Of a stretch of DNA of 64,000 bases, positions 1 through 64,000 are shown piece after piece (positions within the stretch are counted from its first letter, which is position 1; every line of letters starts with the position of its first letter). Under the pieces are notes generated by a model. That model was not told where the DNA came from. It saw only the letters and a program-made list of their open reading frames with translations, and did not search any database. The stretch is from Balanoglossus misakiensis. Taxonomy: Eukaryota; Animalia; Hemichordata. Both the position numbers and the translations under genes were made by a program. The stretch covers positions 9,269,337 through 9,333,336 of the forward strand of contig CM082586.2 in NCBI GenBank assembly GCA_040954595.2, read 5' to 3'.

Positions 1-866
1 AGCCTGGAATTAGATATGCAGAAATAATAATGTGTGAAAAGTAGGTCAAAGGTCATGTGAAAAATCGCCAAAAATTTGTAACATATTGTAGTCATATGAC
101 GAATGATATCCATTAAAAGAATTTGTATGCTATCAATTTTTATACTAGAAAAAGGAATTTTAATTTTTCACTGCTTTTTACAAAATCCAATATGGCCGCC
201 ATAATCTTCGACCAATCACAATGCTCTTTGCAAACTTGATAGACATCAGTGTAGTGACCATACTCCCCGAATCTTGCGACTCAGTCATCGCCCGTTCTGG
301 AGAAGAAGATTTTTGGAGTTTAACTATGGTTTTTCGAAAATCCAATATGGCCGCCATAATCTTCGACCAATCACAATGATCTTCGCAAACTTGATAGACA
401 TCAGTTAGGTGACCACATACCCCAAACCTTGTGTCTCGCTTATCACCGGTTCTGGAGAAGAAGATTTTTGAAATTTAAGCTAGATTTCAGAAAATAAATT
501 GTAGCAAAAAAACTGCAACATTGACAGCAAAATTTCCAATTACAAAAATGATGGGTAGAAGGTAGTCTACTGGCATGCCAAATTTGAAGTCGATCTGACT
601 TGTAGTTTCTGAGATCTGAGATTTGATTTTTTTCAGAAAATCCAATATGGCCGCCAGGTCACGTGACTAATTAAGTATTCACAAGTCACTGCACATCTAC
701 TCATTGACCTTGACCACTGTAGCAAGTTTGAGAAGTGTACCTGCAGCGGTGTCTGAGATCTAGAGCGACAAAGAAATGACACAAGAATAAAGAAAGAAAG
801 AAAGCCGGAAAGAAAAATTCCAACGAAACCAATAGGGCCCAAGCGCTTGCGTGCGCTTGGGCCCTA
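1..866 (+). mobile_element. Right part of a family-A non-autonomous Helentron with intact right terminus
   Basis: 155-bp subrepeats, (GAAA)n tail and hairpin tagggcccaagcgc-ttgcgt-gcgcttgggcccta at 833-866. Confidence 0.85.
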
Positions 867-867
867 A

Positions 868-3800
868 ATATAGCTGCAAGCAGCGATGACGGGCCCAAGC
901 TTAAGCCGAAGGTCAAAGGTCATAAGAGGTCACCCGAAATTTGGGCAAGAAATTTTGACCCCCATACTGGTCCGTGTCCCACAAGAACAAAATCTCTAGC
1001 CCTATTGGTTCGCCTACAATTAGGTATGCGCATAATTAATGAGATAAAGTGTAAGGCTCCATCAGGAGTTCCATCCCTCCAAATGCCAAGGCTGTATCTG
1101 CTGTGGATGCCGAGATATGGTAAAGTAGGTCAAAGGTCACCGGAGGTCACCCAAAATTTGGGCAAAAAATTTTGACCCCATACTGGTCCATGGTCAGCAT
1201 AAATCAAACCTCTAGCCCTATTGCTTAGCCTGGAATTAGGTATGCACATAATTAATGAGATAAGCAGGTGTCACAGGTGACCCCAATTTTGGCTTTTCAA
1301 TTTTAGTCCCAACCCTCCAAACGCCAAGTCTGTACCTGCTCTGGATGCGGAGATATAGGAAAGTAGGTCAAAGGTCACCTGAGGTCACCCAAAATTTGGG
1401 CAAGAAATTTTGACCCTATACTGGTCCATGTCCCACAAGAACGAAACCTCTAGCCCTCTTAGTTAGCCCAGAATTAGGTATGCACATAATTAATGAGTTA
1501 AGCAGGTGTTACAGGTGAGCCTAAAATTGTGCCTTTTATTTTGGTGCCATTATGCTCACCGACCAATAGACAGTCACTGTACAGGACTATTGCACAGACC
1601 AGAATTCCACAATAAGACATGGACATAGCTTATCCATAGAGGTATAAGTAAAGGTATTATTTAATAAAAAAATTAATATAAAAAAATCGGTCGATTTTTC
1701 ATATTATTTTTTTTTCGCTTAAAATTATTGACAAATGCTAGGCTAGCTGCATACCAAAGTTGAAGAAGATTGGCCTGACAGATTTTGAGATATGTATGCA
1801 TATTTATCCAAAATAATATGTGGTCATGGCTTTACTATGGAAAGTATAGGCCCATGGCTTGGTAAAAAATATGAAAAATAATACTTAAAAATCTTCTTCT
1901 CAAAATTGGAATGGCCAATGGCCTTGACATTTGGCATGTAGAACCCTGGCCACATGGTCCGCAAAAGTTGCTAAAAGAATTTTGATATCTCCATTCATAT
2001 GCAAATTAGGTCGATTTGAAAACTTTGCCCATATATGGTCATCAGGTCACGTGACTAATTTAACATTCACAAGGGTACTGCACTAGCTCTCATTGGCCTG
2101 CACCATTGTGCCAAATGTGAGATTTGTAGGTTCAGCCGTTTTCAAGATCTAGCTGGACAAAAAAATGACACAAGAAGAAGAAGAAGAAGAAGTAGAAGAA
2201 ATATAGCTGCAAGCAGCAATGGCGGGCCCAAGCCAACATAGCACATAGCAACATAGCAATAAGCATATCTGCTCTGGATGCCAAGATATGGAAAAGAAGG
2301 TCAAAGGTCACCTGAGGTCATGCAAAATTTGGGCGAGAAATTTTGACCCTATACTGGTCCATGTTCATCAAAAACCAAACCTATAGCCCTATTGGTTAGC
2401 CTGTAATTAGGTATGCACATAATAAATGAGGTAGGCAGGTGTCACAGGTGACCCCCCAATTTGGCTTTTCAATTTTAGTCCCAACCCTCCAAACGCCAAG
2501 TCTGTACCTGCTCTCGATGCCAAGATATGGTAAAGTAGGTCAAAGGTCACCTGAGGTCATGCAAAATTTGGGCAATAAATTTTGACCCTATACTGGTCCA
2601 CGTTCAACTAAAACCAAACCTATAGCCCTATTGGTTAGCCTGGAATTAGGTATGCACATAATTAATGAGATATGCAGGTGTCACAGGTGACCCCTATTTT
2701 GGCTTTTCAACTTAACTCCCAACCCTCCAAAGGCCAAGTCTGTACCTGCTCTGGATGCCGAGATATAGGAAAGTAGGTCAAAGGTCACCTGAGGTCACCC
2801 CAAATTTTGGCAAGAAATTTTGACCCTATACTGGTCCATGTCCCACAAGAACGAAACCTCTAGCCCTCTTAGTAAGCCCATAATTAGGTATGCACATAAT
2901 TAATGAGATATGCAGGTGTCACAGGTGACCCCTATTTTGGCTTTTCAACTTAAGTCCCAACCCTCCTAACGCCAAGTCTGTACCTGCTGTGGATGCCAAG
3001 ATATAGGAAAGTAGGTCAAAGGTCACCTGAGGTCACCCCAAATTTTGGCAGGAATGTTTAACCCTATACTGGTCCATGTCCCACAAGAACGAAACCTCTA
3101 GCCCTCTTAGTTAGCCCAGAATTAGGTAAGCACATAATTAATGAGTTAAGCAGGTGTTAAAGGTGAGCCTAAAATTGTGCCTTTTATTTTGGTGCCATTG
3201 TGCTCACTGACCAATAGACAGTCAATGTACAGGACTATTGCACAGACCAGAATTCCACAACAAGACATGGACATAGAGGTATAAGTAAAGGTATAAATTT
3301 ATTTAAAAAATTAATATAAAAAAATGCGTCGATTTTTCATATTATTTTTTTTCGCTTAAAATTATTGACAAATGCTAGTCTAGCTGCACACCAAAGTTGG
3401 AGATAATTGGCCTAACAGATTTTGAGATATGTATGCATATTTATCCAAAATAATATGTGGTCATAGCTTTACTATGGAAAGTATAGGCCCATGGCTTGGT
3501 AAAAAAATATGAAAAATAATACTCAAAAATCTTCTTCTCAAAATTGGCATGGCCAATGGCCTTGACATTTGGCAAGTAGGACACTGACCACATGGTCCGC
3601 AAAAGTTGCTAACAGAATTTTGATATCACCATTCATATGCAAATAAGGCCGATTTGGAAATTTTGCCCATATATGGTCATCAGGTCACGTGACTAATTTA
3701 ACATTCACAAGGGTACTGCACTAGCTCTCATTCGCCTGCACCATTGTGCCAAGTTTGAAATTGTTAGGTTTAGCAGTTTTCCAGATCTACCTCGCCAAAG

Positions 3801-5004
3801 AAAACGACAGAAGAAGAAGAAAAAGAAGAAGAAGTAGAAGAATATAGCTGCAAGCAGCAATAGCGGGCCCAAGCCAACATAGCACATAGCACATAGCAAC
3901 ATAGCAATAAGCATATCTGCTCTGGATGCCAAGATATGGTAAAGTAGGTCAAAGGTCACCTGAGGTCATGCAAAATTTGGGCAAGAAATTTTGACCCTAT
4001 ACTGGTCCATGTTCAACAAAAACCAAACCTATAGCCCTATTGGTTAGCCTGGAATTAGGTATGCACATAATTAATGAGGTAGGCAGGTGTCACAGGTGAT
4101 CCCCAATTTTGGCTTTTCAATTTTAGTCCCAACCCTCCAAATGCCAAATCTATGCCTGCTCTGGATGCCGAGATATAGGAAAGTAGGTCAAAGGTCACCT
4201 GAGGTCACTCAAAATTTGGGCAAGAATTTTGACCCTATACTGGTCCATGTCCCACAAGAACGAATCCTCTAGCCCTCTTATTTAGCCCAGAATTAGGTAT
4301 GCACATAATTAATGAGTTAAGCAGGTGTTACAGGTGAGCCTAAAATTTTGCCTTTTATTTTGGTGCCATTGTGCTCACTGACCAATAGATAGTCACTGTA
4401 CAGGACTATTGCACAGACCAGAATTCCACAATAAGACATGGACATAGCTTAACCATAGAGGTATAAGTAAAGGTATAAATTTAATAAAAAAATTAATATA
4501 AAAAAATCGGTCGATTTTTCATATTATTTTTTTTCGCTTAAAATTATTGACAAATGCTAGGCTAGCTGCACACCAAAGTTGGAGATGATCGGCCTAACAG
4601 ATTTTGAGATATGTATGCATATTTATCCAAAATAATATGTGGCCATAGCTGTACTATGTAAAGTATAGGCCCATGACTTGGGCGAAAAATATGAAAAATA
4701 ATACTTAAAAATCTTCTTCTCAAAATTTGCATGGCCAATGTCCTTGACATTTAGCATGTAGGACACTGACCACATGGTCCGCAAAAGTTGCTAAAAGAAT
4801 TTTGATATCTCCATTCATATGCAAATAAGGTCGATTTGAAAATTTTGCCCATATATGGTCATCAGGTCACGTGACTAATTAAACATTCACAAGGGTACTG
4901 CACTAGCTCTCATTGGCCTGCACCATTGTGCCAAGTTTGAAATTGGTAGGTTTAGCAGTTTTCCAGATCTACCTCTCCAAAGAAACGACAGAAGAAGAAA
5001 AAGA
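868..5004 (+). mobile_element. Bodies of three family-B non-autonomous Helentrons (HINE-like); left ends at 868, 2201 and 3842
   Basis: Each starts atatagctgcaagcagc...gggcccaagc, has a variable number of ~238-bp cores and a shared unique right block, and ends in (GAA)n-gtagaagaa without a hairpin (hairpins displaced to 38793-38924). Confidence 0.88.
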
Positions 5005-8000
5005 ATTAAAGCTGCAAGCAGCATTGTCCGGGCCCAAGCTCTATTATCTGATCTGATTATTAGATATGCACATAATTAATGAGTAGAAACATAATGTTGT
5101 CTTTTATCGCATGAAATATCAAGGTTATATCTATGTTTGGTGCTGATATAGTGTTTAAAGTAGGTCAAAGGTCACCCAGGGGTCACCAAAAATTTGGGCA
5201 GAATATTTTGACCCATAGTGGTCCATGTCCAACAAAAACCAGACCTCTAGCCCTTTTGGTTAGCCCGGAATTAGGTATGCACATAAATAATGAGTTAAGC
5301 AGGTGTCACAGGTGACCCAAAACTTTGGCTTTTCATTATGGCCCCATACCTCCAAACGCCAAGGCTGTATCTGCTGTGGATGTCGAGATATGCAAAAGTA
5401 GGTCAAAGGTCACCCGAGGTCACCCAAAATTTGGGCAACAAATTTTGACCCAATACTGGTCCATGTCCAACAAAAACCAAACCTCTAGGTCTATTGGTTC
5501 ATCTGTAATTAGGTATGTGCATATTTAATGAGGTCAGCAGAGGTCAAAGGGGTCATGAAAAGTAGCGAAATTTTTTGATCACATACAAATCCACATACAT
5601 CAAAACCAAAATGATAGCCCTATAGGTTAGCCTGGAATTAGATATGCAGAAAAAACGATGTGTCAAAAGTAGGTCAAAGGTCATTGCCAAAATTACCAAA
5701 ATATTTGGGGTAGGTCCTGGCAGGGGTGATACCAATGTGCACAAAAATCAGAACTCTGGTACATTTAGAACACGTAGTATGAGCTATATATGCATATATG
5801 CAGGTTCTTTAAAAAGTAGGTCAAAGGTCATGTGAAAATTGCCAAAATATTTGCAACATATTCTAGTCATATGACGACTCATATCCATAAAAAGAATTTG
5901 TATGCTATCTATTTTTAGACTAGAAAAATGATTTCTTAATTTTCAATGGTTTTTACAAAATCCAATATGGCCGCCATAATCTTCGACCAATCACAACGGT
6001 CTTCGCAAACTTGATAGACATCAGTTAGGTGATGTCATACCCTAAATCCCATGACTCGGTTATTGCCGGTTCTGGAGAAGAAGATTTTTGAAGATTTTAC
6101 TGTACTTTTTTGAAAATCCAATATGGCGGCCAAAGTCACGTGACCGCTCAGGATTTTATTGTCAAACTTTGAAGGGCAGAGGACATGTGTACCATACACC
6201 AAATTTGAACTTGATTGGCCCTGTGGTTTTTGAGAAGAAGCCATTTAAAGATTATCAGAAAATCCAATATGGCCGCCAGGTCACGTGACTAATTAAATAT
6301 TCACAAGCCACTGCACATCTACTCATTGACCTTCACCACTGTAGCAAGTTTGAGAAGTGTACCTGTAGCCGTTTCAGAGATCTAGGAGAGCAAAGAATTG
6401 ACATAAGAATAAAGAAAGAATTAAAGCTGCAAGCAGCATTGTCCGGGCCCAAGCTCTATTATCTGATCAGATTATTAGATATGCACATCATTAATGAGTA
6501 GAACCATAATGCTGTGTTTTATCCCATGAAATATCAAGGTTATATCTATGTTTGGTGTTGATATAGTGTTAAGTAGGTCAAAGGTCACCCAGAGGTCACC
6601 CACAATTTGGGCAGAAAATTTTGACCCATAGTGGTCCATGTCCAACAAAAACCATACCTCCAAACGTCAAGGCTGTATCTGTTGTGGATGTCGATATATG
6701 CAAAAGTAGGTCAAAGGTCACCCGAGGTCACCCAACATTTGGGCAAAATATTTTGTCCCCATACTGGTCCATGTATAACAAAAACAAAACCTCTAGGTCT
6801 ATTAGTTCATCATCAATTAGGTATGCGCATATTTAATGAGGTCACCAGAGGTCATGAAAAGTAGCAAAATTTTTTTATCACATACAAATCCACATACATC
6901 AAAAACCAAACTTATAGCCCTATTGGTTAGCCTGGAATTAGATATGCAGAAAAATGATGCGTCAAAAGTAGGTCAAAGGTCATTGCCAAAATTACCAAAA
7001 TATTTATAGCTTATTCTTGTCATATGATGATTCATATCCATAAAAAGAATTTCTGTGCTATCAATTTTAAGGCTAGAAAAGGAATTTTTACTTTTTAATC
7101 GTTTTTCACAAAATCCAATATGGCCGCCATAATCTTCGACCAATCACATTCCCCTTCGCAAACTTGATAGACATCTGTTTAATGACCACACACACCAAAT
7201 CTTGTGACTCGGTTATCGCCCGTTCTTGAGAAGAAGATTTTTGAAATTTTACAATGGTTTTTAGAAAATCCAATATGGCCGCCATAATCTTCGACCAATC
7301 ACAATGATCTTCGCAAACTTGATAGACATCAGTTAGGTGACCACATACCCCAAACCGCGTGACTCAGTTATCACCGGTTCTGGAGAAGAAGATTTTTGAA
7401 AATTAAGCCAGATTTCAGAAAAAAAATTGTAGCAAAAAAACTGCAACATTTACAGCAAAATATCCAATTACAAAAATGATGGGTAGAAGGTAGACTACCT
7501 GCACACCAAATTTGAAGTCGATCTGACTTGTAGTTTCTGAGATCTGAGATTTGCATTTTTTCAGAAAATCCAATATGGCCGCCAGGTCACGTGACTAATT
7601 AAAAATTCAAGGGTTCAATGCACGACTACTCATTGACCTTGACCACTGTAGCAAGTTTCAGAAGTGTACCTGCAGCGGTGTCTGAGATCTAGAGCGACAA
7701 AGAATTGACAGAAGAATAAAGAAAGAAAGAAAGAAAGAAAGAATTAAAGCTGCAAGCAGCATTGTCCGGGCCCAAGCTCTATTATCTGATTTGATTATTA
7801 GATATGCACATAATTAATGAGTAGAAACATAATGCTGTGTTTTATCCCATGAAATATCAAGATTATATCTATGTTTAGTGCTGATATAGTGTTAAGTAGG
7901 TCAGAGGTCACCCAGAGGTCACCCACAGTTTTGGCAGAAAATTTTGACCCATAGTGGTCCATGTCCAACAAAAACCAGACCTCTAACCCTTTTGGTTAGC

Positions 8001-11000
8001 CCGGAATTAGGTATGCACATAAATAATGAGTTAAGCAGGTGTCACAGGTGACCAAAAACTTTGGCTTTTCATTATGGCCCCATACCTCCAAACGCCAAGG
8101 CTGTATCTGCTGTGGATGCTGAGATTTGCGAAAGTAGGTCAAAGGTTACCAGAGGTCACCCAAAATTTGGGTAAAAAATTTTGACCCCATACTTGTCCTG
8201 TCCAACAAAAACAAAACCTCTAGGTCTATTGGTTCATCTGTAATTAGGTATGCGCATATTTAATGAGGTCAGCAGAGGTCAAAGGGGTCATGAAAAGTAG
8301 CAAAATTTTTTGATCACATACAAATCCACATACATCAAAAACCAAACTTATAGCCCTATTGGTTAGCCTGGAATTAGATATGCAGAAAATTGATGCGTCA
8401 AAAGTAGGTCAAAGGTCATTGCCAAAATTACCAAAATATTTATAGCTTATTCTTGTTATATGATGATTCATATCCATAAAAAGAATTTCTGTGCTATCAA
8501 CTTTTAGGCTAGAAAGGGAATTTTTACTTTTTAATCGTTTTTCACAAAATCCAATATGGCCGCCATAATCTTCGACCAATCACATTCCTCTTCGCAAACT
8601 TGATAGACATCCGTTGAATGACCACACACACAAAATCTTGTGACTCGGTTATCGCCGGTTCTTGAGGAGAAGATTTTTGAAGTTTTACTATGGTTTTTCG
8701 AAAATCCAATATGGCCGCCATAATCTTCGACCAATCACAAGGATCTTCGCAAACTTGATAGACCTCAGTTTGGTGACCACATACCCCAAACCGCGTGACT
8801 CGGTTATCGCCGGTTCTGGAGAAGAAGATTTTTGAAATTTTGACCAGATTTCAGAAAAAAAATTGTAGCAAAAAAACTGCATCATTGACAGCAAAATATC
8901 CAATTACAAAAATGATGGGCAGGAGGTACACTACCAGCACACCAAATCTGAAGTAAATCTGACTTGTAGTTTCTGAGATCTGAGATTTGCATTTTTTCAG
9001 AAAATCCAATATGGCCGCCATGTCACGTGACTAATTAAAAATTCAAGAGTTCAATGCACGACTACCCATTGACCTTGACCACTGTAGCAAGTTTGAGAAG
9101 TGTACCTGCAGCGGTGTCTGAGATCTAGAGCGACAAAGAAATGACACAAGAATAAAGAAAGAAAGAAAGAAAAACCCCAACGAAACCAATAGGGCCCAAG
9201 CGCTGGTATGCGCTTGGGCCCTAAAAACCCCAACGAAACCAATAGGGCCCAAGCGCTGGTATGCGCTTGGGCCCTAAAGAAAAACCCCAACGAAACCAAT
9301 ACGGGCCCAAGCCTGGCTTGGCTTGGGCCCGTAAGAAGTAGAATTAAAGCTGCAAGCAGCATTGTCGGGCCCAAGCGCTGATCTTGAATTATATATGCAC
9401 AGTATGAATGAGAAAAAACAGAATTTTCTATCGTATGTATTATCTGATGACATAACAAGGATGTGTGTATTTTTGCTGCTGAAATAGGGTGAAGTAGGTC
9501 AAAGGTCACCAGAGGTCACGCAACATTTGGGCAAAAAATTTTGATCCCATACTGGTCCATGTCCAACAAAAAACAAAACTCTAGCTCTATTGGTTCGCCT
9601 GTAATTAGGTATGTGCATATTTAATGAGGTCAGCAGGTGTCACAGGTGACTCAAAAATGTGGCTTTACATTTTGGTCCCATCCTACCAAATGCCATGGCT
9701 GTATCTGCTCTGGATGCTGAGATATGCGAAAGTAGGTCAAAGGTCACCAGAGGTCACGGAACATTTGGGCAAAAATTTTTGATCTCATACTGGTCTGTGT
9801 CCAACAAAAACCAAACCTCTAGCTCTATTGGTTCGCCTGTAATTAGCTATGCACATAATTAATGAGGTCAGCAGAGGTCAAAGGGGTCATGAAAAGTAGC
9901 AAAATATTTTGATCACACACTAATCCACATTCATCAAAAACCAAACGTCTAGCCCTATAGGTTAGCCTGGAATTAGATATGCAAAAATACTAACGCGTGA
10001 TAAGTAGGTCAAAGGTCATGTGAAAAATCGCCAAAAAATTGTAACATATTTTAGTCACATGACGATTGATATCCATAAAAAGAATTTGTATGCTATCAAT
10101 TTTTAGACTAGAAAAAGGAATTTCAATTTTTCACTGCTTTTTACAAAATCCAATATGGCCGCCATAATCTTCGACCAATCACAATGCTCTTTGCAAACTT
10201 GATAGACATCAGTGTAGTGACCATACTCCCGGAATCTTGCGACTCAGTCATCGCCCGTTCTGGAGAAGAAGATTTTTGGAGTTTAACTATGGTTTTTCTA
10301 AAATCCAATATGGCCGCCATAATCTTCGACCAATCACAATGATCTTCGCAAACTTGATAGACATCAGTTAGGTGACCACATACCCCAAACCCCGTGTCTC
10401 GGTTATCACTGGTTCTGGAGAAGAAGATTTTTGAAATTTAAGCCAGATTTCAGAAAAAAAATTGTAGCAAAAAAACTGCAACATTGACAGCAAAATGTCC
10501 AATTACAAAAATGATGGGTAGAAGGTAGTCTACCTGCATGCCAAATTTGAAGTCGATCTGACTTGTAGTTTCTGAGATCTGAGATTTGAATTTTTTCAGA
10601 AAATCCAATATGGCCGCCAGGTCACGTGACTAATTAATTATTCACAAGTCACTGCACATCTACTCATTGACCTTGACCACTGTAGCAAGTTTGAGAAGTG
10701 TACCTGCAGTAGTTTCAGAGATCTCGTTGGCCGAAGAAATTGACACAAGAAAAAAGAAAGAAAGATTAAAGCTGCAAGCAGCATTGTCCGGGCCCAAGCT
10801 CTATTATCTGATCAGATTATTAGATATGCACATAATTAATGAGTAGAAACATAATGCTGTGTTTTATCCCATGAAATATCAAGGTTATATCTATGTTTGG
10901 TGCTGATATAATGTTAAGTAGGTCAAAGGTCCCCTGAGGTCACCCAAAATTTGGGCAGAAAAATTTGACCCATAGTGGTCCATGTCCAACAAAAACCAGA

Positions 11001-14000
11001 CCTCTAGCCCTTTTGGTTAGCCCGGAATTAGGTATGCACATAAATAATGAGTTAAGCAGGTGTCACAGGTGACCCAAAACTTTGGCTTTTAATTATGGCC
11101 CCATACCTCCAAACGCCAAGGCTGTATCTGCTGTGGATGTCGAGATATGCAAAAGTAGGTCAAAGGTCACCAGAGGTCACCCAACATTTGGGCAAATTTG
11201 TTTGACCCAATACTGGTCCATGTCCAACAGAAACCAAACCTCTAGGTCTATTGGTTCATCTGGAATTAGGTATGTGCATATTTAATGAGGTCAGCAGAGG
11301 TCACAGGTGACCCTAAACTGTGGCTTTTCATTATGGCCCCATATATCCAAATGCCAAGGCTGTACCTGCTTTGGATACCAAGATATGCAAAAGTAGGTCA
11401 AAGGTTATCCGTGGTCACCCAACATTTGGGTAAAATATTTTGACCCCGTACTGATCCATGTCCAAAAAAACCCAAACCTCCAGGTCTATTGGTTCATCAT
11501 GAATTAGGTATGCGCATATTTAATGCGGTCAGCAGAGGTCAAAGGGGTCATGAAAAGTAGCAAAATTGTTTGATCACATACAAATCCACATACATCAAAA
11601 ACCAAACTTGTAGCCCTATTGGTTAGCCTGGAATTAGATATGCAGAAAAATGATGTGTCAAAAGTAGGTCAAAGGTCTTTGCCAAAATTACCAAAATATT
11701 TATAGCTTATTCTTGTCATATGATGATTCATATCCATAAAAAGAATTTCTGTGCTATCAATTTTTAGGCTAGAAAGGGAATTTTTACTTTTTAATCGTTT
11801 TTCACAAAATCCAATATGGCCGCCATAATCTTCAACTAATCACATTCTTCTTCGCAAACTTGATAGACATCTGTTTAATGACCACACACACCAAATCTTG
11901 TGACTCGGTTATCGCCGGTTCTCGAGAAGAAGATTTTTGAAATTTTACTAGGGTTTTTCGAAAATCCAATATGGCCGCCATAATCTTCGACCAATCACAA
12001 TGATCTTCGCAAACTTGATAGACATCAGTTAGGTGACCACATACCCCAAACCCCGTGTCTCGGTTATCACCGGTTCTAGAGAAGAAGATTTTTGAAATTT
12101 AAGCCAGATTTCAGAAAAAAAATTGTAGCAAAAAAACTGCAACATTGACAGCATAATTTCCAATTACAAAAATGTTTGACAGAAGGTAGTCTACCTGCAC
12201 GCCAAATTTGAAGTCGATCTGACTTGTAGTTTCTGAGATCTGAGATTTGCATTTTTTCAGAAAATCCAAGATGGCCGCCAGGTCATGTGACTAATTAAAA
12301 ATTCATGGGTTCAATGCACGACTACTCATTGACCTTGACCACTGTAGCAAGTTTGAGAACTGTACCTGCAGTGGTGTCTGAGATCTAGAGCGACAAAGAA
12401 ATGACAGAAGAATATAGAAAGAAGAAAGAAAGAAAGACAGATTAAAGCTGCAAGCAGCATTGTCCGGGCCCAAGCTCTATTATCTGATCAGATTATTAGA
12501 TATGCACATAATTAATGAGTAGAAACATAATGCTGTGTTTTATCCCATAAAATATCAAGGTTATATCTATGTTTGGTGTTGATATAGTGTTAAGTAGGTC
12601 AAAGGTCACCCAGAGGTCACCCACAATTTGGGCAGAAAATTTTGATCCATAGTGGTCCATGTCCAACAAAAACCAGACCTCTAGCCCTTTTGGTTAGCCC
12701 GGAATTAGGTATGCACATAAATAATGAGTTAAGCAGGTGTCAAAGGTGACCCAAAACTTTGGCTTTTCATTATGGCCCCATACCTCCAAACGCCAAGGTT
12801 GTATCTGCTGTGGATGTCGAGATATGCAAAAGTAGGTCAAAGGTCACCCGAGGTCACCCAACATTTGGGCAAAATATTTTGACCCCATACTGGTCCATGT
12901 ATAACAAAAACAAAACCTCTAGGTCTATTGGTTCATCATTAATTAGGTATGCGCATATTTAATGAGGTCACCAGAGGTCAAAGGGGTCATGAAAAGTAGC
13001 AACATTTTTTGATCACATACAAATCCACATACATCAAAAACCAAACTTATAGCCCTATTGGTAAGCCTGGAATTAGATATGCAGAAAAATGATGCGTCAA
13101 AAGTAGGTCAAAGGTCATTGCCAAAATTACCAAAATATTTATAGCTTATTCTTGTCATATGATGATTCATATCCATAAAAAGAATTTCTGTGCTATCAAT
13201 TTTTAGGCTAGAAAAGGAATTTTTACTTTTTAATCGTTTTTCACAAAATCCAATATGGCCGCCATAATCTTCGACCAATCACATTCCCCTTCGCAAACTT
13301 GATAGACACCTGTTTAATGACCACACACACCAAATCTTGTGACTCGGTTATCGCCCGTTCTTGAGAAGAAGATTTTTGAAGTTTTACTATGGTTTTTCGA
13401 AAATCCAATATGGCCGCCATAATCTTCGACCAATCACAATGATCTTCGCAAACTTGATAGACATCAGTTAGGTGACCACATACCCCAAACCGCGTGACTC
13501 AGTTATCACCGGTTCTGGAGAAGAAGATTTTTGAAATTTAAGCCAGATTTCAGAAAAAAAATTGTAGCAAAAAAACTGCAACATTTACAGCAAAATATCC
13601 AATTACAAAAATGATGGGTAGAAGGTAGACTACCTGCACACCAAATTTGAAGTCGATCTGACTTGTAGTTTCTGAGATCTGAGATTTGCATTTTTTCAGA
13701 AAATCCAATATGGCCGCCAGGTCACGTGACTAATTAAAAATTCACATGTTCAATGCACGACTACTCATTGACCTTGACCACTGTAGCAAGTTTCAGAAGT
13801 GTACCTGCAGCGGTGTCTGAGATCTAGAGCGACAAAGAATTGACACAAGAATAAAGAAAGAAAGAAAGAAGAAAGAAAAACCCCAACGAAACCAATAGGG
13901 CCCAAGCGCTGGTATGCGCTTGGGCCCTAATTAAAGCTGCAAGCAGCATTGTCCGGGCCCAAGCTCTATTAACTGATCTGATTATTAGATATGCACGTAA

Positions 14001-22808: not shown

Positions 22809-22811
22809 AGA

Positions 22812-38924: not shown

Positions 38925-38930
38925 ATAATA

Positions 38931-52527: not shown

Positions 52528-52630
52528 AATATGCTCAAAAACTTAAGAGAAAACAGTTGCTAGTGCTATCGGCCGGTAGTTACTGGCATCACTACAAAGC
52601 TTAGTTTTATCCTTAATAATTGGAACTAAA

Positions 52631-55600
52631 ATTAAAGCTGCAAGCAGCATTGTCCGGGCCCAAGCTCTATTATCTGATCTGATTATTAGATATGCATATA
52701 ATTAATGAGTAGAAACATAATGCAGTGTTTTATTCCATGAAATATCAAGGTTATATCTATGTTTGGTGTTGATATAGTGTTAAGTAGGTCAAAGGTCACC
52801 CAGAGGTCACCCATAATTTTGGCAGAAAATTTTGACCCATAGTCGTCCATGTCCAACAAAAACCAGACCTCTAGCCCTTTTGGTTAGCCCGGAATTAGGT
52901 ATGCACATAAATAATGAGTTAAGCAGGTGTCACAGGTGACCCAAAACTTTGGCTTTTCATTATGGCCCCATACCTCCAAACACCAAGGCTGTATCTGCTG
53001 TGGATGTCGAGATATGCAAAAGTAGGTCAAAGGTCACCCGAGGTCACCCAACATTTGGGTAAAATATTTTGACCCCATACTGGTCCATGTATAACAAAAA
53101 CAAAACCTCTAGGTCTATTGGTTCATCATTAATTAGGTAAGCGCATATTTAATGAGGTCACCAGAGGTCAAAGGGGTCATGAAAAGTAGCGAAATTTTTT
53201 GATTGCATACAAATCCACATACATCAAAAACCAAACTTATAGCCCTATTGGTTAGCCTGGAATTAGATATGCAGAAAAATGATCCGTCAAAAGTAGGTCA
53301 AAGGTCATTGCCAAAATTACCAAAATATTTATAGCTTATTCTTGGCATATGATGATTCATATCCATAAAAAGAATTTCTGTGCTATCAATTTTTAGGCTA
53401 GAAAGGGAATTTTTACTTTTTAATCGTTTTTCACAAAATCCAATATGGCCGCCATAATCTTCGACCAATCACATTCCCCTTCGCAAACTTGATAGACATC
53501 TGTTTAATGACCACACACACCAAATCTTGTGACTCAGTTATCGCCGGTTCTTGAGAAGAAGATTTTTGAAATTTTACTAGGGTTTTTCCAAAATCCAATA
53601 TGGCCGCCAAAATCTTCGACCAATCACAATGATCTTCGCAAACTTGATAGACCTCAGTTTGGTGACCACATACCCCAAACCGCGTGACTCGGTTATCGCC
53701 GGTTCTGGAGAAGAAGATTTTTGAAATTTTGACCAGATTTCAGAAAAACAACTGTAGCAAAAAAACTGCAACATTGACAGCATAATTTCCAATTACAAAA
53801 ATGTTTGCCAGAAGGTAGTCTACCTGCACGCCAAATTTGAAGTCGATCTGACTTGTAGTTTCTGAGATCTGAGATTTGCATTTTTGCAGAAAATCCAAGA
53901 TGGCCGCCAGGTCACGTGACTAATTAAAAATTCATGGGTTCAATGCACGACTACTCATTGACCTTGACCACTGTAGCAAGTTTGAGAACTGTACCTGCAG
54001 TGGTGTCTGAGATCTAGAGCGACAAAGAATTGACACAAGAATAAAGAAAGATTAAAGCTGCGAGCAGCATTGTCGGGCCCAAGCGCTGATCTCGAATTAT
54101 ATATGCACAGTATGAATGAGAAGAAACAGAATTTTCTATCGGGTGTATCTCATGACATAACAAGGACGTGTGTATTTTTGCTGCTGAAATAGGGTGAAGT
54201 ATGCCAAAGGTCACTTGAGGTCACCCAACATTTGGGCAACTTTTTTTGACCGATACTGGTCCATGTCCAACAGAAACCAAAACTCTAGCTCTATTGGTTC
54301 GCCTGTAATTAGGAATGTGCATATTTAATGAGGTCAGCAGGTGTCACAGGTGACCCAAAAATGTGGCTTTACATTTTGGTCCCATCCTGCCAAATGCCAT
54401 GGCTGTATCTGCTCTGGATGCTGAGATATGCGAAAGTAGGTCAAAGGTCACCAGAGGTCTTCCAAAATTTGGGCAAAAAATTTTGATCCCATACATGTCC
54501 ATGTCCAACAAAAACCAAACCTCTAGCTCTATTGGTTCGCCTGTAATTAGCTATGCACATAATTAATGAGGTCAGCAGAGGTCAAAGGGGTCATGAAAAG
54601 TAGCAAAATATTTTGATCACACACTAATCCACATGCATCAAAAACCAAACGTCTAGCCCTATAGGTTAGCCTTGAATTAGATATGCAGAAATAATAATGC
54701 ATGATAAGTAGGTCAAAGGTCATGTGAAAAATCGCCAAAAATTTGTAACATATTTTAGTCATATGACGAATGATATCCATGAAAAGAATTTGTATGCTAT
54801 CAATTTTTAGACTAGGAAAAGGAATTTCAATTTTTCACTGCTTTTTACGAAATCCAATATGGCCGCCATAATCTTCGACCAATCACAATGCTCGTTGCAA
54901 ACTTGATAGACATCAGTGTTGTGACCATACTCCCCGAATCTTGCGACTCAGTTATCGCCAGTTCTGGAGTAGAAGATTTTTGCAGTTTTACTATGGTTTT
55001 TCGAAAATCCAATATGGCCGCCATAATCTTCGACCAATCACAATGCTTCTTATCAAACTTGATAGACATCAGTTAGGTGACCACATACCCCAAACCGCGT
55101 CACTCGGTTATCACCGGTTCTGGAGAAGAAGATTTTTGAAATTTAAGCCAGATTTCAGAAAAAAAATTGTAGCAAAAAAACTGCAACATTTACAGCAAAA
55201 TATCCAATTACAAAAATGATGGATAGAAGGTAGACTACCTGCACACCAAATTTGAAGTCGATCTGACTTGTAGTTTCTGAGATCTGAGATTTGCATTTTT
55301 TCAGAAAATCCAATATGGCCGCCAGGTCACGTGACTAATTAAAAATTCAAGGGTTCAATGCACGACTACTCATTGACCTTGACCACTGTAGCAAGTTTGA
55401 AAACTGTACCTGCAGTGGTGTCTGAGATCTAGAGCGACAAAGAAGTGAACCAAGAATAAAGAAAGAAAGAAAGAAAGAATTAAAGCTGCAAGCAGCATTG
55501 TCGGGCCCAAGCGCTGATCTTGAATTATATATGCACAGTATGAATGAGAAGAAACAGAATTTTCTATCGTATGTATTATCTCATGACATAACAAGGATGT

Positions 55601-58600
55601 GTGTATTCTTGCTGCTGAAATAGGGTGAAGTAGGTCAAAGGTCACCTGAGGTCACCCAACATTTGGGCAATTTTTTTTTTACCCATACTGGTCCATGTCC
55701 AACAAAAAACAAAACTCTAGCTCTATTGGTTTGCCTGTAATTAGGTATGTGCATATTTAATGAGGTCAGCAGGTGTCACAGGTGACCCAAAAATGTGGCT
55801 TTACATTTTGGTCCCATCCTACCAAATGCCATGGCTGTATCTGCTCTGGATGATGAGATATGCAAAAGTAGGTCAACGGTCACCAGAGGTCACGCAACAT
55901 TTGGGCAAAAAATTTTGATCCCATACTGGTCCATGTCCAACAAAAACCCAACCTCTAGCTCTATTGGTTCGCCTGTAATTAGCTATGCGCATAATTAATG
56001 AGGTCAGCAGAGATCAAAGGGGTCATGAAAAGTAGCAAAATATTTTGATCACACACTAATCCACATTCATCAAAAACCAAACGTCTAGCCCTATAGGTTA
56101 GCCTGGAATTGGATATGCAGAAATAATAACGCGTGATAAGTAGGTCAAAGGTCATGTGAAAAATCGCCAAAAAATTGTAACATATTTTAGTCACATGACG
56201 ATTGATATCCATAAAAAGAATGTGTATGCTATCAATTTTTAGACTAGAAAAAAGAATTTCAATTTTTCACTGCTTTTTACAAAATCCAATATGGCCGCCA
56301 TAATCTTCGACCAATCACAATGCTCTTTGCAAACTTGATAGACATCAGTGTAGTGACGATACTCCCCGAATCTTGCGACTCAGTCATCGCCCGTTCTGGA
56401 GAAGGAAATTTTTGGAGTTTAACTATGGTTTTTCGAAAATCCAATATGGCCGCCATAATCTTCGACCAATCACAATGCTTCTTATCAAACTTGATAGACA
56501 TCAGTTAGGTGACCACATACCCCAAACCACGTGTCTCGGTTATCACCGGTTCTGGAGAAGAAGATTTTTGAAATTTAAGCCAGATTTCAGAAAAAAAATT
56601 GTAGCAAAAAAACTGCAACATTGACAGCAAAATTTCCAATTACAAAAATGATGGGTAGAAAGTAGTCTACCTGCATGCCAAATTTGAAGTCGATCTGACT
56701 TGTAGTTTCTGAGATCTAAGATTTGCATTTTTTCAGAAAATCCAATATGGCCGCCAGGTCACGTGACTAATTAAAAATTCAAGGGTTCAATGCACGACTA
56801 CTCATTGACCTTGACCACTGTAGCAAGTTTGAAAACTGTACCTGCAGTGGTGTCTGAGATCTAGAGCGACAAAGAAGTGAACCAAGAATAAAGAAAGAAA
56901 GAAAGAAAGAAAGAATTAAAGCTGCGAGCAGCATTGTCGGGCCCAAGCGCTGATCTTGAATTATATATGCACAGTATGAATGAGAAGAAACAGAATTTTC
57001 TATCGGATGTATTATATCATGACATAACAAGGATGTGTGTATTTTTGCTGCTGAAATAGGATGAAGTAGGTCAAAGGTCACCTGAGGTCACCTAAAATTT
57101 GGGCAAAATTTTTGACCCCATACGAGTCCATGTCCAACAAAAACCAAAACTCTAGCTCTATTGGTTCGCCTGTAATTAGGTATGTGCATATTTAATGAGG
57201 TCAGCAGGTGTCACAGGTGACCAAAAAATGTGGCTTTACATTATGGTCCCATCCTACCAAATGCCATGGCTGTATCTGCTCTTGATGCTGAGATATGCGA
57301 AAGTAGGTCAAAGGTCACCAGAGGTCACCCAACATTTGGGCAAAAATGTTTGATCCCATACTGGTCCATGTCCAACAAAAACCAAACCTCTAGCTCTATT
57401 GGTTCGCCTGTAATTAGCTATGCACATAATTAATGAGGTCAGCAGAGGTCAAAGGGGTCATGAAAAGTAGCAAAATATTTTGATCACACACTAATCCACA
57501 TTCATCAAAAACCAAACGTCTAGCCCTATAGGTTAGCCTGGAATTAGATATGCAGAAATAATAACGCGTGATAGGTAGGTCAAAGGTCATGTGAAAAATC
57601 GCCAAAAAATTGTAACATATTTTAGTCACATGACGATTGATATCCGTAAAAAGAATTTGTATGCTATCAATTTTTAGACTAGAAAAAGGATTTTCAATTT
57701 TTCGCTGCTTTTTACAAAATCCAATATGGCCGCCATAATCTTTGACCAATCACAATGCTCTTTGCAAACATGATAGACATCAGTGTAGTGACCATACTCC
57801 CCGAATCTTGCGACTCAGTCATCGCCCGTTCTGGAGAAGAAGATTTTTGGAGTTTAACTATGGTTTTTCGAAAATCCAATATGGCCGCCATAATCTTCGA
57901 CCAATCACAATGATCTTCGCAAACTTGATAGACATCAGTTAGGTGACCACATACCCCAAACCCCGTGTCTCGGTTATCGCCGGTTCTGGAGAAGAAGATT
58001 TTTGAAATTTAAGCCAGATTTCAGAAAAAAAATTGTAGCAAAAAAACTGCAACATTGACAGCAAAATTTCCAATTACAAAAATGATGGGTAGAAGGTAGT
58101 CTACCTGCACGCCAAATTTGAAGTCGATCTGACTTGTAGTTTCTGAGATCTGAGATTTGCATTTTTTCAGAAAATCCAAGATGGCCGCCAGGTCATGTGA
58201 CTAATTAAAAATTCAAGGGTTCAATGCACGACTACTCATTGACCTTGACCACTGTAGCAAGTTTCAGAAGTGTACCTGCAGTGGTCTCTGAGATCTAGAG
58301 CGACAAAGAATTGACACAAGAATAAAGAAAGAAAGAAGAAAGAAAGACAGAATTAAAGCTGCAAGCAGCATTGTCCGGGCCCAAGCTCTATTATCTGATC
58401 TGATTATTAGATATGCACATAATTAATGAGTAGAAACATAATGCTGTTTTACCCCATGAAATATCAAGGTTATATCCATGTTTGGTGTTGACATAGTGTT
58501 AAGTAGGTCAAAGGTCACCCAGATGTCACCCACAATTTGGGCAGAAAATTTTGACCCATAGTGGTCCATGTCCAACAAAAACCAGACCTCTAGCCCTTTT

Positions 58601-59770
58601 GGTTAGCCCGGAATTAGGTATGCACATAAATAATGAGTTAAGCAGGTGTCACAGGTGACCCAAAACTTTGGCTTTTCATTATGGCCCCATACCTCCAAAC
58701 GCCAAGGCTGTATCTGCTGTGGATGTCGAGATATGCAAAAGTAGGTCAAAGGTCACCCGAGGTCACCCAACATTTGGGCAAAATATTTTGACCCCATACT
58801 GGTCCATGTATAACAAAAACAAAACCTCTAGGTCTATTGGTTCATCATTAATTAGGTATGTGCATATTTAATGAGGTCAGCAGAGGTCAAAGGGGTCATG
58901 AAAAGTAGCAAAAATTTTTGATCGCATACAAATCCACATACATCAAAAACCAAACTTATACCCCTATTGGTTAGCCTGGAATTAGATATGCAGAAAAATG
59001 ATGCGTCAAAAGTAGGTCAAAGGTCATTGCCAAAATTACCAAAATATTTATAGCTTATTCTTGGCATATGATGATTCATATCCATAAAAAGAATTTCTGT
59101 GCTATCAATTTTTAGGCTAGAAAGGGAATTTTTACTTGTTAATCGTTTTTCACAAAATCCAATATGGCCGCCATAATCTTCGACCAATCACATTCACCTT
59201 CGCAAACTTGATAGACATCTGTTTAATGACCACACACACCAAATCTTGTGACTCAGTTATCGCTGGTTCTTGAGAAGAAGATTTTTGAAATTTTACTAGG
59301 GTTTTTCGAAAATCCAATATGGCCGCCATAATCTTCGACCAATCACAATGATCTTCGCAAACTTGATAGACCTCAGTTTGGTGACCACATACCCCAAACC
59401 GCGTGACACGGTTATCGCCGGTTCTGGAGAAGAAGATTTTTGAAATTTTGACCAGATTTCAGAAAAACAACTGTAGCAAAAAAACTGCAACATTGACAGC
59501 AAAATATCCAATTACAAAAATGATGGGCACAGGGTACACTACCAGCACACCAAATCTGAAGTAAATCTGACTTGTAGTTTCTGAGATCTGAGATTTGCAT
59601 TTTTTCAGAAAATCCAATATGGCCGCCATGTCACGTGACTAATTAAAAATTCAAGAGTTCAATGCACGACTACCCATTGACTTTGACCACTGTAGCAAGT
59701 TTGAGAAGTGTACCTGCAGCGGTGTCTGAGATCTAGAGCGACAAAGAATTGACATAAGAATAAAGAAAGA
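52631..59770 (+). mobile_element. Second nest: five family-A non-autonomous bodies without right hairpins
   Basis: Left ends at 52631, 54051, 55479, 56915 and 58352; each body is cut in its (GAAA)n tail by the next left end. Confidence 0.88.
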
Positions 59771-62700
59771 ATTAAAGCTGCAAGCAGCATTGTCCGGGCC
59801 CAAGCTCTATTATCTGATCTGCACATAGTTAATGAGTAGAAACATAATGCTGTGTTTTATCCCATGACATATCAAGGTTATATGTATGTTTGGTGCTGAT
59901 ATTGTGTTAAGTAGGTCAAAGGTCATCTGAGGTCACCCAAAATTTGGGCAGAAAATTTTGACCCATAGTGGTCCATGTCCAACAAAAGCAGACCTCTAGC
60001 CCTTTTGGTTAGCCCGGAATTAGGTATGCACATAAATAATGAGTTTAGCAGGTGTCATAGGTGACCCGAAACTTTGGCTTTTCATTATGGCCCCATACCT
60101 CCAAACGCCAAGGCTGTATCTGCTGTGGATGTCGAGATATGCACAAGTAGGTCAAAGGTCACCCGAGGTCACCCAACATTTGGGCAAAAAATTTTGACCC
60201 AATACTGGTCCATGTACAACAAAAACCAAACCTCTAGGTCTATTGATTCATCTGTAATTAAGTATGCACATATTTAATGAGGTCAGCAGAGGTCAAAGGG
60301 GTCATGAAAAGTAGCGAAATTTTTTGATCACATACAAATCCACATACATCAAAAACCAAAATGATAGCCCTATAGGTTAACCTGGAATTAGATATGCAGA
60401 AAAAAACGATGTGTCAAAAGTAGGTCAAAGGTCATTGCCAAAATTACCAAAATATTTGGGGTATGTCCTGGCAGGGGTGATACCAATGTGCACAAAAATC
60501 AGAACTCTGGTACATTTAGAACAGGTAGAATGAGCTATATATGCATCCCTATAGGTTAGCCTGGAAATAGATATACAGAAATAATAATGTGTGAAAAGTA
60601 GGTCAAAGGTCAGGTGAAAAATCCCCAAAAATTTGTAACATCATTTAGTCATATGACGATTGATATCCGTAAAAAGAATTTGCATGCTATCAATGTTTAG
60701 ACTAGAAAAAGGAATTTCAATTTTTTACTGCTTTTTACAAAATCCAATATGGCGGCCATATTTTTCGACCAATCACAATGCTCTTTGCAAACCTGACAGA
60801 CATCAGTGTAATGACCATACTCCCCGAATCTTGCGACTCAGTTATCGCCAGTTCTGGAGAAGATTGTTGGAGTTTTACTATGGTTTATCGAAAATCCAAT
60901 ATGGCCGCCATAATCTTCGACCAATCACAATGTTCTTGGCAAACTTAGTAAAAATTGGGGCAAAAAAACTGGAACATGGACAGCATAATATCCAATTACA
61001 AAAATGATGGGCAGAAGGTAGACTACAAAATATGATGATACACACTAATCCACATGCATCATTACACATGCAGTAGTTGAGGGCGAAATACAAAGTTAGA
61101 ATGTACACATTATGTGATTGGTTAATTAGTCACAAGTGATGTGTGGATTGGTTGTAAATAGTTGAAAATTTTCATCTGAATCAGTGAAAGTTTTGACAGA
61201 GGTATTTGTTTGGCTATAAACATATCTTTATTTAAGTGAACAGATCTGTATATTACATCCGTTAACTGTGAAGAGGATGTAGTATAGATATACCAATATA
61301 TTGAGCTGTATAAACGGAGTGTTAACCCAACACGTCTATGGGGTATGAATCTGAAAGCAACTTCATCCTACGCACTTGAATCCGAAAACGAATCTGACTC
61401 CAGCAGAGGCGTTGACCTGAATCCGGTGAGTAACACGTATACAATTACATGCAGTTTTTAAATGTGGTACGAAGGAGAGAATCGGTGGTTTGAACGTATA
61501 ATACTTGGTGATGTTGGTTATGAAGTTGTTGTTTAACCAATGGTAGTGTGATTTTGTTTGTTAGTGAGACGATGGCAGTTTTGTAAGATGTTTTGTATTT
61601 TCGTCTCGAGCGAATTCCAATATGGCGGCTATCGTAACGTGTCGAGATTGCTTACTGTATGTAAAGAATCCATGGTACCGTAAGCATGCATGTTTTGGCA
61701 AATGTTATATATGTTGAGATGGTGGAGTTTGCTGGATTAAATAGAACAATTAGAGGGTGGGTAAATCAGAGTTTCTAGTGCGTTCCATTCAAGTTGAAAT
61801 TACGAGATAAGCTTCTTTTTGCAGTCAATGTACAAATGATTATTTAGACTGGAAAGGGTTTAGGCAAGCGAATCTCGTGACCGGAAGTGTTGAATTCAGG
61901 CGATCGGTGTGTCATGCGTATGTTACGTACAAGCGTTGGTAAAGTATTTTTTCTGGGATGTGTATTTGTAAAAAAAAAAAATAAACTGTGCGGTATTTAT
62001 GGATTGGCTTTTCCAAATATGTAAATACTGCATTTATTTCTGTGAATATTGTATGTTTATGTGATCAAAAGCCCAGGGGTTATCATTGTAATTTTTATCA
62101 GTTAAATCGATTTGTTTTTTGATAATTGAAAGGAATTTTGCTTCAAATATTGAACAATCTGTGTGAGTACAAAACAGAAACATTGCTGGATTATTTGACG
62201 TTTTAGTTGTTTGTAAAAATGTGGGGACAAGCGGAGAATTGGCCAAATATTTTTGGTGACCACTGCCTTTAGTGTGTATGCTTTCTGGTGGTGACAGGTG
62301 TGCCAAAACGTAGACAATGGAATCTGGCAGGAGCATGAAAAGAACAGTTGACTTGTTAACATATTTTGATGCCATGAAAATATGTTGTGTTATCAATCTG
62401 TGGTAACCTGTATGTGCCATTTGTATGGAAACTGTGATCAAGACATGAATTTCTGAATATCACAAGCTTGGCAGTGAATTCATTGTTAATTGTTATCCTG
62501 TTTGTAGGCAATTGTATATTTTCATGTATTAGTTTAAATATAAATTTATAGTTAATTAGTTAATTAAACAGGTTTTTTATTTTCTTGACAGATTTTGGCT
62601 ATCAAAGAGTTTTCAAGGTGAGTGTTGGTGCACAACAGTGCATAGTATCATAGATTAACACACTCAGGTGTGCATTGTGTCAAATGTGAATTAGTCTTTT

Positions 62701-64000
62701 AAATCATTTGCGGAGGAATTGCTTAGTTCTACTATCAGTCACACTGTGGTTTAATATCAGATAGGATGATTGTCCACTTCCATGCAACGTCTGTAAACAT
62801 GTAAAAGCACTAGCCCATTTCTTTGAATTTGTTATTCAGGGGTGACGGAAGAAAAACATATTGTAATAGTTCTTAGAAATGGTGTTTATTGAATACATCA
62901 GAAAGGAAGGGACTTGTATGTGAAGAACAATCATTGTGCTATGTGGTGTTAAGATCATTGGATAGTGCCATTACTTACAACAGTGGCTTCAATAAAACAT
63001 TGGTATGATGTATGTTTCTTGATATCCCTGCCTTGTTATTGAACTTGTATATTAAATTACTAAGTGTAAATCAGGTCTAAAACAATCGTTTGTGATTTGT
63101 ATGAGTACATAATGAAAATGCCAGGATGTAAGGTCATACAGGGGTCAGGATTCAAGCCTTGTCAGGTTCTTCAGGAGGGAAATGCGGTGTCAGTGAATAC
63201 TGTGTGTGTATTTGTCCGTGTGTGTGTCTGTATGTATGAATGCATACATACATGAATGCTTGTCATTGTACTTGGACTTGATATTGCTGACTGGTGGAAA
63301 TGGTTTTGAAGTGAAATTTTATTCAGATTTGGCTGAGTACATTGCAACGTAAATGGGAAAATGTCGGGTCATTCAGGGTCAGGTCTGAAGCCTTATTTGG
63401 TTGTACACGGTGGATGTTGGGGTGTCCGTGTATTTGTTTATGTCTGTGCAAATGCATACATGTATGCCTATCGTACTTGGACTTGATATTGCTAACTGGT
63501 GGAAATGATTTTGAAGTGAAATTTTATTCAGATTTGGCTGAGTACATTGCAACATAAATGGGAAAATGTCGGGTCATTCAGGGTCAGGTCTGAAGCCTTA
63601 TTTGGTTGTACACGGTGGATGTTGGGGTCTCCGTGTATTTGTTTATGTCTGTGCAAATTCATACATGTATGCCTATCGTACTTGGACTTGATATTGCTAA
63701 CTGGTGGAAATGATTTTGAAGTGAAATTTTATTCAGATTTGGCTGAGTACATTGCAACGTAAATGGGAAAATGTCGGGTCATTCAGGGTCAGGTCTGAAG
63801 CCTTATTTGGTTGTACACGGTGGATGTTGGGGTGTCCGTGTATTTGTTTATGTCTGTGCAAATTCATACATGTATGCCTATCGTACTTGGACTTGATATT
63901 GCTAACTGGAAGTGAAATTTTATTCAAATTTGGCCGAGTACATTGCAACGTAAATGGGAAAATGTCGGGTCATTCAGGGTCAGGTCTGAAGCCTTATTTG
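59771..64000 (+). mobile_element. 5' part of a second long, putatively autonomous Helentron (family A ends), truncated by the window edge
   Basis: Family-A left end and cores to ~61025, then unique sequence with collinear similarity to 24380-25430 of the autonomous element (gcacttgaatccgaa, tccgaaaacgaat, ggtgagt, ggtagtgtgattttg, caatatggcggc, cag|att...tcaag|gtgagtgtt). Confidence 0.65.
63268..64000 (+). repeat. 205-bp tandem repeat, >=3.5 highly similar copies
   Basis: gtacttggacttgatattgct...gagtacattgcaacgtaaatgggaaaatgtcgggtcattcagggtcagg recurs with a 205-bp period (ORF track 63342/63547); the fourth copy has a short deletion. Confidence 0.95.

Follow-up and report, generated by a model that had tools for sequence, protein, structure and literature searches.

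A satellite-like array in Balanoglossus misakiensis is a nest of rolling-circle transposons inserted beside one another's ends

How does a block of DNA that looks like a 1.4-kb satellite come to have its left ends spread along the array and its hairpin ends gathered in stacks? We addressed this question in a 64,000-nt stretch of the hemichordate Balanoglossus misakiensis (assembly GCA_040954595.2, contig CM082586.2, positions 9,269,337 to 9,333,336 of the forward strand; hereafter the window). It is a single window without N, picked for its striking appearance. The array is a nest of more than 30 rolling-circle transposons in one orientation, nearly all of them beside the end of another copy. 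Judged from their sequence, they are ordinary Helentron-type elements, and the nest is likely the product of repeated separate insertions.

Motif scans of the whole window located 32 left ends (L) and 25 hairpin ends (R). An L is made up of a short GCTGC-AA-GCAGC palindrome and the motif GGGCCCAAGC, and all 32 lie on the + strand, with no reversed L (0/32). The motif of the subterminal inverted repeat (subTIR), at up to two mismatches, occurs 85 times, with 82 occurrences inside an L or R and three stray two-mismatch matches. Five R are single and the others form six stacks of two to five, built of 50-54-nt units. The bodies lie about 1.4 kb apart and fall, by sequence comparison, into families A, A', B, C and E; the non-coding copies (HINEs) contain central tandem repeats of 238- and 155-bp units and carry GAA/GAAA microsatellite tails beside the 5' hairpin. 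Most L (21/32) directly follow the purine tail of a host body, ten follow an R at spacings of 0, 0, 0, 0, 0, 1, 3, 3, 6 and 9 nt, and the last, at 52632, is in unique DNA. A preliminary description of this locus had reported scattered left ends with stacked hairpins, a single orientation, and a position at a host tail or after a hairpin for every L but one. All three statements agree with the scans, and its sample coordinates were right within about 1-3 nt (remapped in Table 1). It had also placed L about 20-50 bp from the host hairpin; the proximity stands, but the range is 20-39 nt with a peak at 20-21 nt. As a further correction to it, 26 L lie upstream of 52.5 kb and three of them lack any R.

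The order in which these ends close has the form of nested parentheses, as the preliminary description had proposed. Hairpin types were assigned from loop and flank; types A, B and C are anchored by bodies that run straight into a hairpin and type E by a subTIR variant common to L and R, and type A' is defined only by the parse itself, which makes that label circular. Under strict last-in-first-out closure the families match at 20 of 24 testable R, compared with 6 of 24 under first-in-first-out, an order that we rejected on this count. A parse that allows L without R yields 23 pairs, three orphan L and two R whose L lies outside the window. When families were shuffled only among the 16 non-innermost L, permutation gave p = 1e-5 and 8e-5; merging A' into A changed these values to 9.5e-5 and 1.4e-3. 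Five stacked C-type R find their counterparts in five C-type L distributed over 23 kb, with the bracket match reaching 38 kb, and the E-specific subTIR variant is common to L 40432 and R 46343, spanning three nested copies. Stacked ends whose partners are in range all pair with bodies of their own, over 52 kb and in five families. Composite movement, as in the FoHeli model, or loss of stack units may account for the three orphan L. Separately, the stacked hairpins at 16850, 22723, 22777 and 46228 resemble the family of the adjacent unit in loop or flank, which suggests conversion or exchange within stacks.

Removing the inner copies gives a second view of the same structure. With inner copies excised and two terminal A counted to the element, the last A-run is 5, 6, 5, 5, 5 and 5 in six A/A'/B hosts, and intact tails have 5 in 10/10 cases. 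The three C hosts come out at 6, 7 and 7, where the sole intact C tail has 5, so that the excision proposed in the preliminary description restores host tails in A/A'/B hosts but leaves longer runs in C hosts. The left flanks of the 32 L read GAA (15), TAA (8), AGA (5) and AAA (4). Since the five AGA flanks offer only a single preceding A, duplication of an AA target is excluded at those sites, and together with the restored A-run lengths they led us to reject such duplication, in keeping with the initial claim that target-site duplications are absent. Near-identical hosts carry different children at equal distance (6421/19791 with 10 mismatches; 43125/46374 with 4), and no duplicated host-child pair was found in the window, where the best joint identity is 95.6%; the junctions therefore look independent. 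Near-identical copies form four groups (12442/21218/38932; 41639/50628; 6421/19791; 43125/46374) with only 4-11 substitutions in about 1.5 kb, pointing to recent activity and perhaps to local sources.

Where in the host does insertion occur? Among hosts with a single child, 9/11 carry it in the tail's final A-run, at a distance of 20-21 nt from the inner arm of the hairpin, and the other two at 25 and 39 nt. With A sites of the tail as background, the probability of this result is 3e-4; it is 1.6e-9 when every A5/T5 run of the host is counted as available, and 4e-8 when every GA4/T4C site of the host is. In rebuilt hosts, 19/19 placeable insertions lie 20-39 nt from the inner arm, and same-strand tail sites make up 6.7% of the AA/TT sites in those hosts, although these 19 include siblings that share a site and so are not independent. 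In hosts whose tail has a second A5-A6 run, the hairpin-proximal run was used in 2/2 single-child cases. The element's own L terminus lies 22-24 nt from its subTIR in 32/32 copies, with the same motif in the same orientation. Right junctions fall upstream of a subTIR motif at 20-25 nt in 18/25 cases and at 20-39 nt in 24/25, the exception being the outermost host, and the five spacer-free hairpin-to-L joints are also located at subTIR spacing. Away from the ends, the reconstructed HINE sequence (32.6 kb) contains no L or R motif, nor does the coding element described below in its 14.3-kb interior, and no reversed family fragment was found in the window.

The ends follow the published HINE/Helitron2 plan, in which an inverted repeat and hairpin with an adjoining microsatellite mark the 5' end and an inverted repeat lies 20-30 nt from the 3' end (portions consulted of PMC4067079 and PMC3627910). 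The asymmetric inverted repeats, for which 8-15 bp is expected, share a 10-nt core, with about 3 nt separating the outer arm from the end, and the hairpins fold at -17 to -21 kcal/mol (DNA parameters). The 3' inverted repeat stands at the 22-24-nt distance given above, within the 20-30 nt of the plan, and the intervening palindrome is weak, with a stem of 4-5 bp. The flanks and restored A-runs show insertion at TT or T(T/C) with no duplication of the target; a microsatellite by the 5' hairpin, central tandem repeats and non-coding copies that share both ends with a coding partner are all present. Since the ends fit this plan when read on the - strand, the hairpin, which the preliminary description had taken for the right end, is by Helitron2/HINE convention the 5' end.

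The coding partner is a 14.5-kb element (24221-38723) that is itself nested, has the same ends as the short copies and is accompanied in the window by non-coding derivatives; it is apparently an autonomous Helentron with an intact enzyme frame. The predicted 2450-aa product matches PF14214, PF05970 and PF03372 in that order above curated cut-offs, placing an AP endonuclease (EN) C-terminal to the Rep-Pif1 helicase, and PF02338 (OTU) and PF20209 (DUF6570) are also above cut-off. DUF6570 and EN are nearly confined to HLE2 according to the sections available of PMC11417382. Rep motif 2, at residue 1205, is preceded by FYR and reads GSPH, with S between G and P. This is the Helentron-type signature, matching the F/Y-x-R and the interposed S given as the Helentron (HLE2) criterion in the part of PMC4067079 at hand. 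Among the best 120 of 1227 relatives, the closest over residues 700-2200 are 61-62% identical unnamed animal proteins with the same domain order, from hagfish, acorn worm and abalone, followed by fishes; given this patchy spread, horizontal transfer is worth considering. The first 49 nt of the C-family HINEs at 22813 and 3843 are 90-92% identical to the coding element, and at the other end identity is about 85% across 1.2-1.4 kb; families A and E match the coding element only in part. The polarity of the open reading frame (ORF) is opposite to the usual one, a reversal reported in a minority of elements (PMC4067079, PMC3627910, in the parts seen).

Further features of the coding element were noted along its length. 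The ORF contains in-frame tandem repeats at 28353-28697 (54-bp unit x6.4 at 95%) and 26945-27174 (42-45-bp units). Upstream of it, 24480-26810 holds 243-bp repeats and splice-like donor and acceptor signals recognised by eye, which suggest non-coding first exons. Three inverted-repeat segments, at 25834-26192, 35913-36375 and 34284-34435, have arms of 139 nt at 83%, 31 nt at 97% and 18-20 nt at 90-94%, and look like miniature inverted-repeat transposable elements of other kinds; the interior has thus been entered by other elements, and by no HINE. A tRNA-like stretch at 36060-36135, seen by eye and not called by ARAGORN, is perhaps the remnant of a short interspersed element.

To account for the placement of the copies, we lean slightly towards end-guided targeting, in which the transposase aims insertions by the subTIR of a resident copy. 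RepHel would hold the incoming 5' end, that is, the hairpin end, on the - strand, and the held end would pair with or recognise a complementary resident subTIR. Joining would follow at a T-rich site 20-25 nt beyond the subTIR, in the same step that normally sets the element's 3' end; pairing of 5' and 3' asymmetric terminal inverted repeats has been proposed by Bao and Jurka as the determinant of the transposition end point (PMC3627910, in the portion consulted). Such a site would occur twice in a resident copy: use of its true L end would leave a spacer-free joint, and use of the inner hairpin arm an insertion in the tail. Because each arriving copy carries a new target, a nest can feed itself. 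The earlier interpretation therefore stands in part: insertion by resident ends is nested, orientation-locked and without duplication in the window, but a role of the hairpin or subTIR, though favoured by the 20-21-nt peak, is confounded with the tail, the only long purine tract in the elements.

Several observations weigh against end-guided targeting. Tail and hairpin always co-occur, and the tail is the sole long purine tract in the HINE body. The spacings are near but not equal (20-21 and 22-24 nt), E-type hosts are struck at 28-31 nt and other sites lie at 25, 32 and 39 nt, and the A5 run of the outer E host is unused. A bare rule of motif plus spacing permits reversed insertion at the five spacer-free joints, and reversed L number 0/32; within spacer-free pairs the order of arrival is unreadable. 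The evidence comes from one selected window. Helitron2 elements are reported to insert after TTTT, between TTTT and T/C (PMC3627910), and the Helitron1 element Helraiser to show no clustering near donor sites (PMC4778049), each in the portion of the source consulted; Helentron biochemistry was not found in the literature searched.

The principal competitor dispenses with the hairpin. The transposase may simply prefer T-runs in the long pyrimidine/purine microsatellite that each element carries beside it as a landing pad, a reading that we consider possible but on the unlikely side. HINEs favour TT or T-rich sites (PMC4067079, PMC7492417, parts available), the Helitron2 preference for TTTT just cited points the same way, the last A-run is usually the longest of the tail, simple-repeat targeting has been proposed for Paramecium Helitrons (PMC13085455, in part), and strand bias of the tract would set orientation. 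Against it, the second A5-A6 run was skipped in both single-child hosts that have one, and the spacer-free joints are located at subTIR spacing; eight purine runs of 12-16 nt in the coding-element interior are unused as well, but these are short. An unbiased version, with random insertion at TT and copies merely tolerated in a repeat-rich region, is the least credible explanation of all. Helitron clusters are common in the reports seen, yet 19/19 placeable insertions fall in tail sites (siblings again not independent), and tolerance cannot separate tail from body; for the window itself, the placement of the insertions refutes this reading.

Growth without insertion is hardly more attractive. 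Satellite-like unequal crossing-over, with 1.4-kb bodies and 50-nt hairpin units multiplied separately, would suit the regular ~1.4-kb spacing, the four copy groups at least 99% alike, the hybrid features of the four stacked hairpins and the three L without R. It is very unlikely, since the last-in-first-out closure and the permutation tests largely refute it, five C-type L up to 38 kb distant match five C-type R, the E variant is common to L 40432 and R 46343, and twin copies have unlike neighbours. A satellite consists of homogeneous head-to-tail monomers with neighbours most alike, whereas neighbours here are of different families and show bracket closure; unequal exchange may still be the source of missing and hybrid hairpins. 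We rate rolling-circle concatemers, or composite transposition of multi-ended units, a shade lower. The five spacer-free joints do resemble circle joints and Helraiser makes circles (PMC4778049, portion seen), and blocks with several L and one R are compatible with composite movement (FoHeli model, PMC5148889, portion seen). The joint partners, however, are only 74-94% alike and of different families in three of five joints, which rules out concatemers of one circle; no host-child pair is repeated, and no family has surplus R once the two window-edge R are excluded, for which reason free 50-nt hairpin mini-units were also rejected as the source of the stacks. Assembly artefact is less probable again: repeats are dense and the three missing hairpins could be collapses, but a 38-kb bracket match, restored tails, distinct copies, the absence of N and a 7.35-kb open frame are unlike misjoins. 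Even taken together, unequal exchange, concatemers, misassembly and chance remain improbable.

The family-aware parse divides the window into two nests (Table 1). The outer E host of Nest 1 has its left end upstream of the window, and nesting reaches up to seven levels counting that host; the spacers between top-level members read as parts of a single TAA-rich tail, and we infer one E host enclosing all of Nest 1. The owner of hairpin 52380 is ambiguous, as tail phase points to B 47785 and body-end subtype to B 49194. Four of five C-family elements, the coding element among them, lie within C-family hosts (869-3843, 22813, 24221), as a family preference or an age effect. Nest 2 begins in unique DNA 103 nt past the end of Nest 1. 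Within its last element (59772-64000), likeness to HINE bodies ends near 61030-61060. The 3 kb that follow are unique and G-skewed, contain 205-bp repeats and weakly resemble the coding element's 5' region (69% over about 100 nt); this last element is possibly a second long Helentron.

Table 1. Positions of nests, elements and hairpin stacks, numbered from the first nucleotide of the window; '>' reads 'contains'
Feature	Coordinates	Strand	Details
Nest 1	1..52528	+	nested Helentron/HINE copies over at least 52.5 kb; single closing hairpin 52494-52524 (E-type); family-aware parse
B-family HINE	1..867	+	cut by window edge, tail intact, hairpin 835-864
Three nested C-family HINEs	869..38925	+	L 869, 2202, 3843; hairpins 38896, 38846, 38795
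Chain A' 5006 > A 6421 > A 7744	5006..9334	+	closing hairpins 9192, 9245, 9303
Sample sites of the preliminary description, remapped			L 5006, 6421, 7744; hairpin starts 9192, 9245, 9303
R stack of 3	9192-9330
Block with three L	9344..13930	+	B 9344, A 10766, A 12442; one hairpin 13898; two L without R
Siblings in tail of C host 3843	13931..22809	+	A 13931 > A 15350; A 16883; B 18367 > A 19791 > A 21218; hairpin-to-L without spacer
R stack of 2	16796-16879
R stack of 3	22670-22806
C-family HINE	22813..38774	+	hairpin 38745; host of coding element 21 nt from that hairpin
Apparently autonomous Helentron	24221..38723	+	14.5 kb, C-family ends, tail intact
Open frame, 2450 aa, stop to stop	26797..34149	+	OTU, DUF6570, Helitron Rep, Pif1 helicase, AP endonuclease
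R stack of 5	38694-38925	+	all C-type, ~50-nt units, hairpins to 38922
Intact A-family HINE	38932..40428	+
E-family HINE	40432..46373	+	variant subTIR in own L and own hairpin 46343; contains A 41639 and A' 43125 > A 44539
R stack of 3	46228-46369
A' 46374 > B 47785 > B 49194 > A 50628	46374..52465	+	three closing hairpins 52308, 52380, 52434; one B without R
R stack of 4	52308-52524
Non-element DNA between the nests	52529..52631		103 nt
Nest 2	52632..64000	+	linear chain of six L (A 52632, B 54052, B 55480, B 56916, A 58353, A-like 59772); no hairpin up to window end

Helentron target choice has so far been known only as 'TT, T-rich', and the locus gives a nucleotide-level hotspot. It also supplies two competing rules with differing predictions and a candidate active enzyme with natural substrates, making target choice a testable question. 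If end-guided targeting is true, it would account for stacked 5' ends in fungi and offer a route to satellite-like blocks without unequal exchange; such blocks would be mis-annotated as satellites, and each nest would be a record of the order of family activity. A wider and more doubtful extension is that Helitron2-type elements at large are DNA-guided self-targeting transposons, whose enzyme-bound 5' end pairs with any resident subTIR and joins about 20-25 nt on. Throughout animal genomes they would then build ordered islands longer than 50 kb that record their own growth, and the site might be redirected through the 10-nt motif.

How far does this arrangement depart from known systems? No family-matched deep Helentron nest, and no fixed site relative to the subTIR, was found in the full-text literature searched, which covered few subscription papers or Repbase reports, and the consulted portions of PMC7492417, PMC4224331, PMC11417382, PMC12001565 and PMC8268682 do not describe nests of this kind; those of PMC12001565, on Xenopus, give no instance of self-insertion either. 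The L-end pattern had no match in viral contigs, one in metagenome contigs (a chance match inside a bacterial-looking gene) and one in a genome record of Prevotella, also regarded as chance; no relative turned up when viral contigs were searched for RepHel. The preliminary description knew of no account of this architecture at such depth, but part of the idea has a precedent, as self-insertion with stacked 5' ends is already in print for FoHeli1 of Fusarium.

The nearest relatives are Helentron/HINE/DINE-1 (Thomas, Vadnagara, Pritham 2014, PMC4067079) and oyster Cg_HINE (PMC7492417). In the parts of these papers at hand, the elements are like ours in subTIRs, a 5' hairpin with microsatellite, a 3' palindrome, central repeats, a TT target without duplication, a Rep-Hel-EN protein with OTU, and end-sharing non-coding derivatives. 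They are described there as clustering and entering other repeats, whereas family-matched nests and a fixed site by the hairpin are seen only here. FoHeli1 is likewise of Helitron2 type with stacked 5' ends. Its first 31-85 nt are repeated, which was ascribed to self-insertion near the 5' end (Chellapan 2016, PMC5148889), and up to five 5' ends occur per copy (TR4 paper, PMC13342296), both as given in the sections consulted; the unit here is 50-54 nt. In FoHeli1, as far as those sections go, several 5' ends accompany a single 3' end and self-insertion was inferred, whereas here the stacked ends pair with their own bodies and the site is mapped to the nucleotide.

More distant parallels, likewise drawn from partial texts, involve clustering or simple repeats. 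Telomere-associated Helitrons of Paramecium, whose orientation bias is absolute, have been proposed to enter a simple repeat in a sequence-directed way (PMC13085455); they form a separate clade and target the host telomeric repeat, whereas here the tract is carried by the element. Maize Helitrons are described as inserting close to one another (Yang and Bennetzen 2009, cited in PMC12477314). In plants, rolling-circle tandem arrays that have several 5' ends have been ascribed to partial rolling-circle replication (Xiong 2016, cited in PMC12628747); oyster 'shuffled' loci are cited in a review beside these plant arrays. Related elements cluster in the maize and plant cases too, but those are canonical Helitron1, and the neighbours here are unlike and nested. 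What is newly mapped here is a nucleotide-level hotspot at 20-21 nt, near the elements' own 22-24-nt end spacing, which suggests end-guided targeting. Other HUH enzymes integrate at mimics of their own site, as do adeno-associated virus Rep at AAVS1 and relaxases at nic, and IS608 uses guide pairing. The logic proposed here, a binding or pairing motif at a fixed spacing from the cut, resembles theirs by analogy only.

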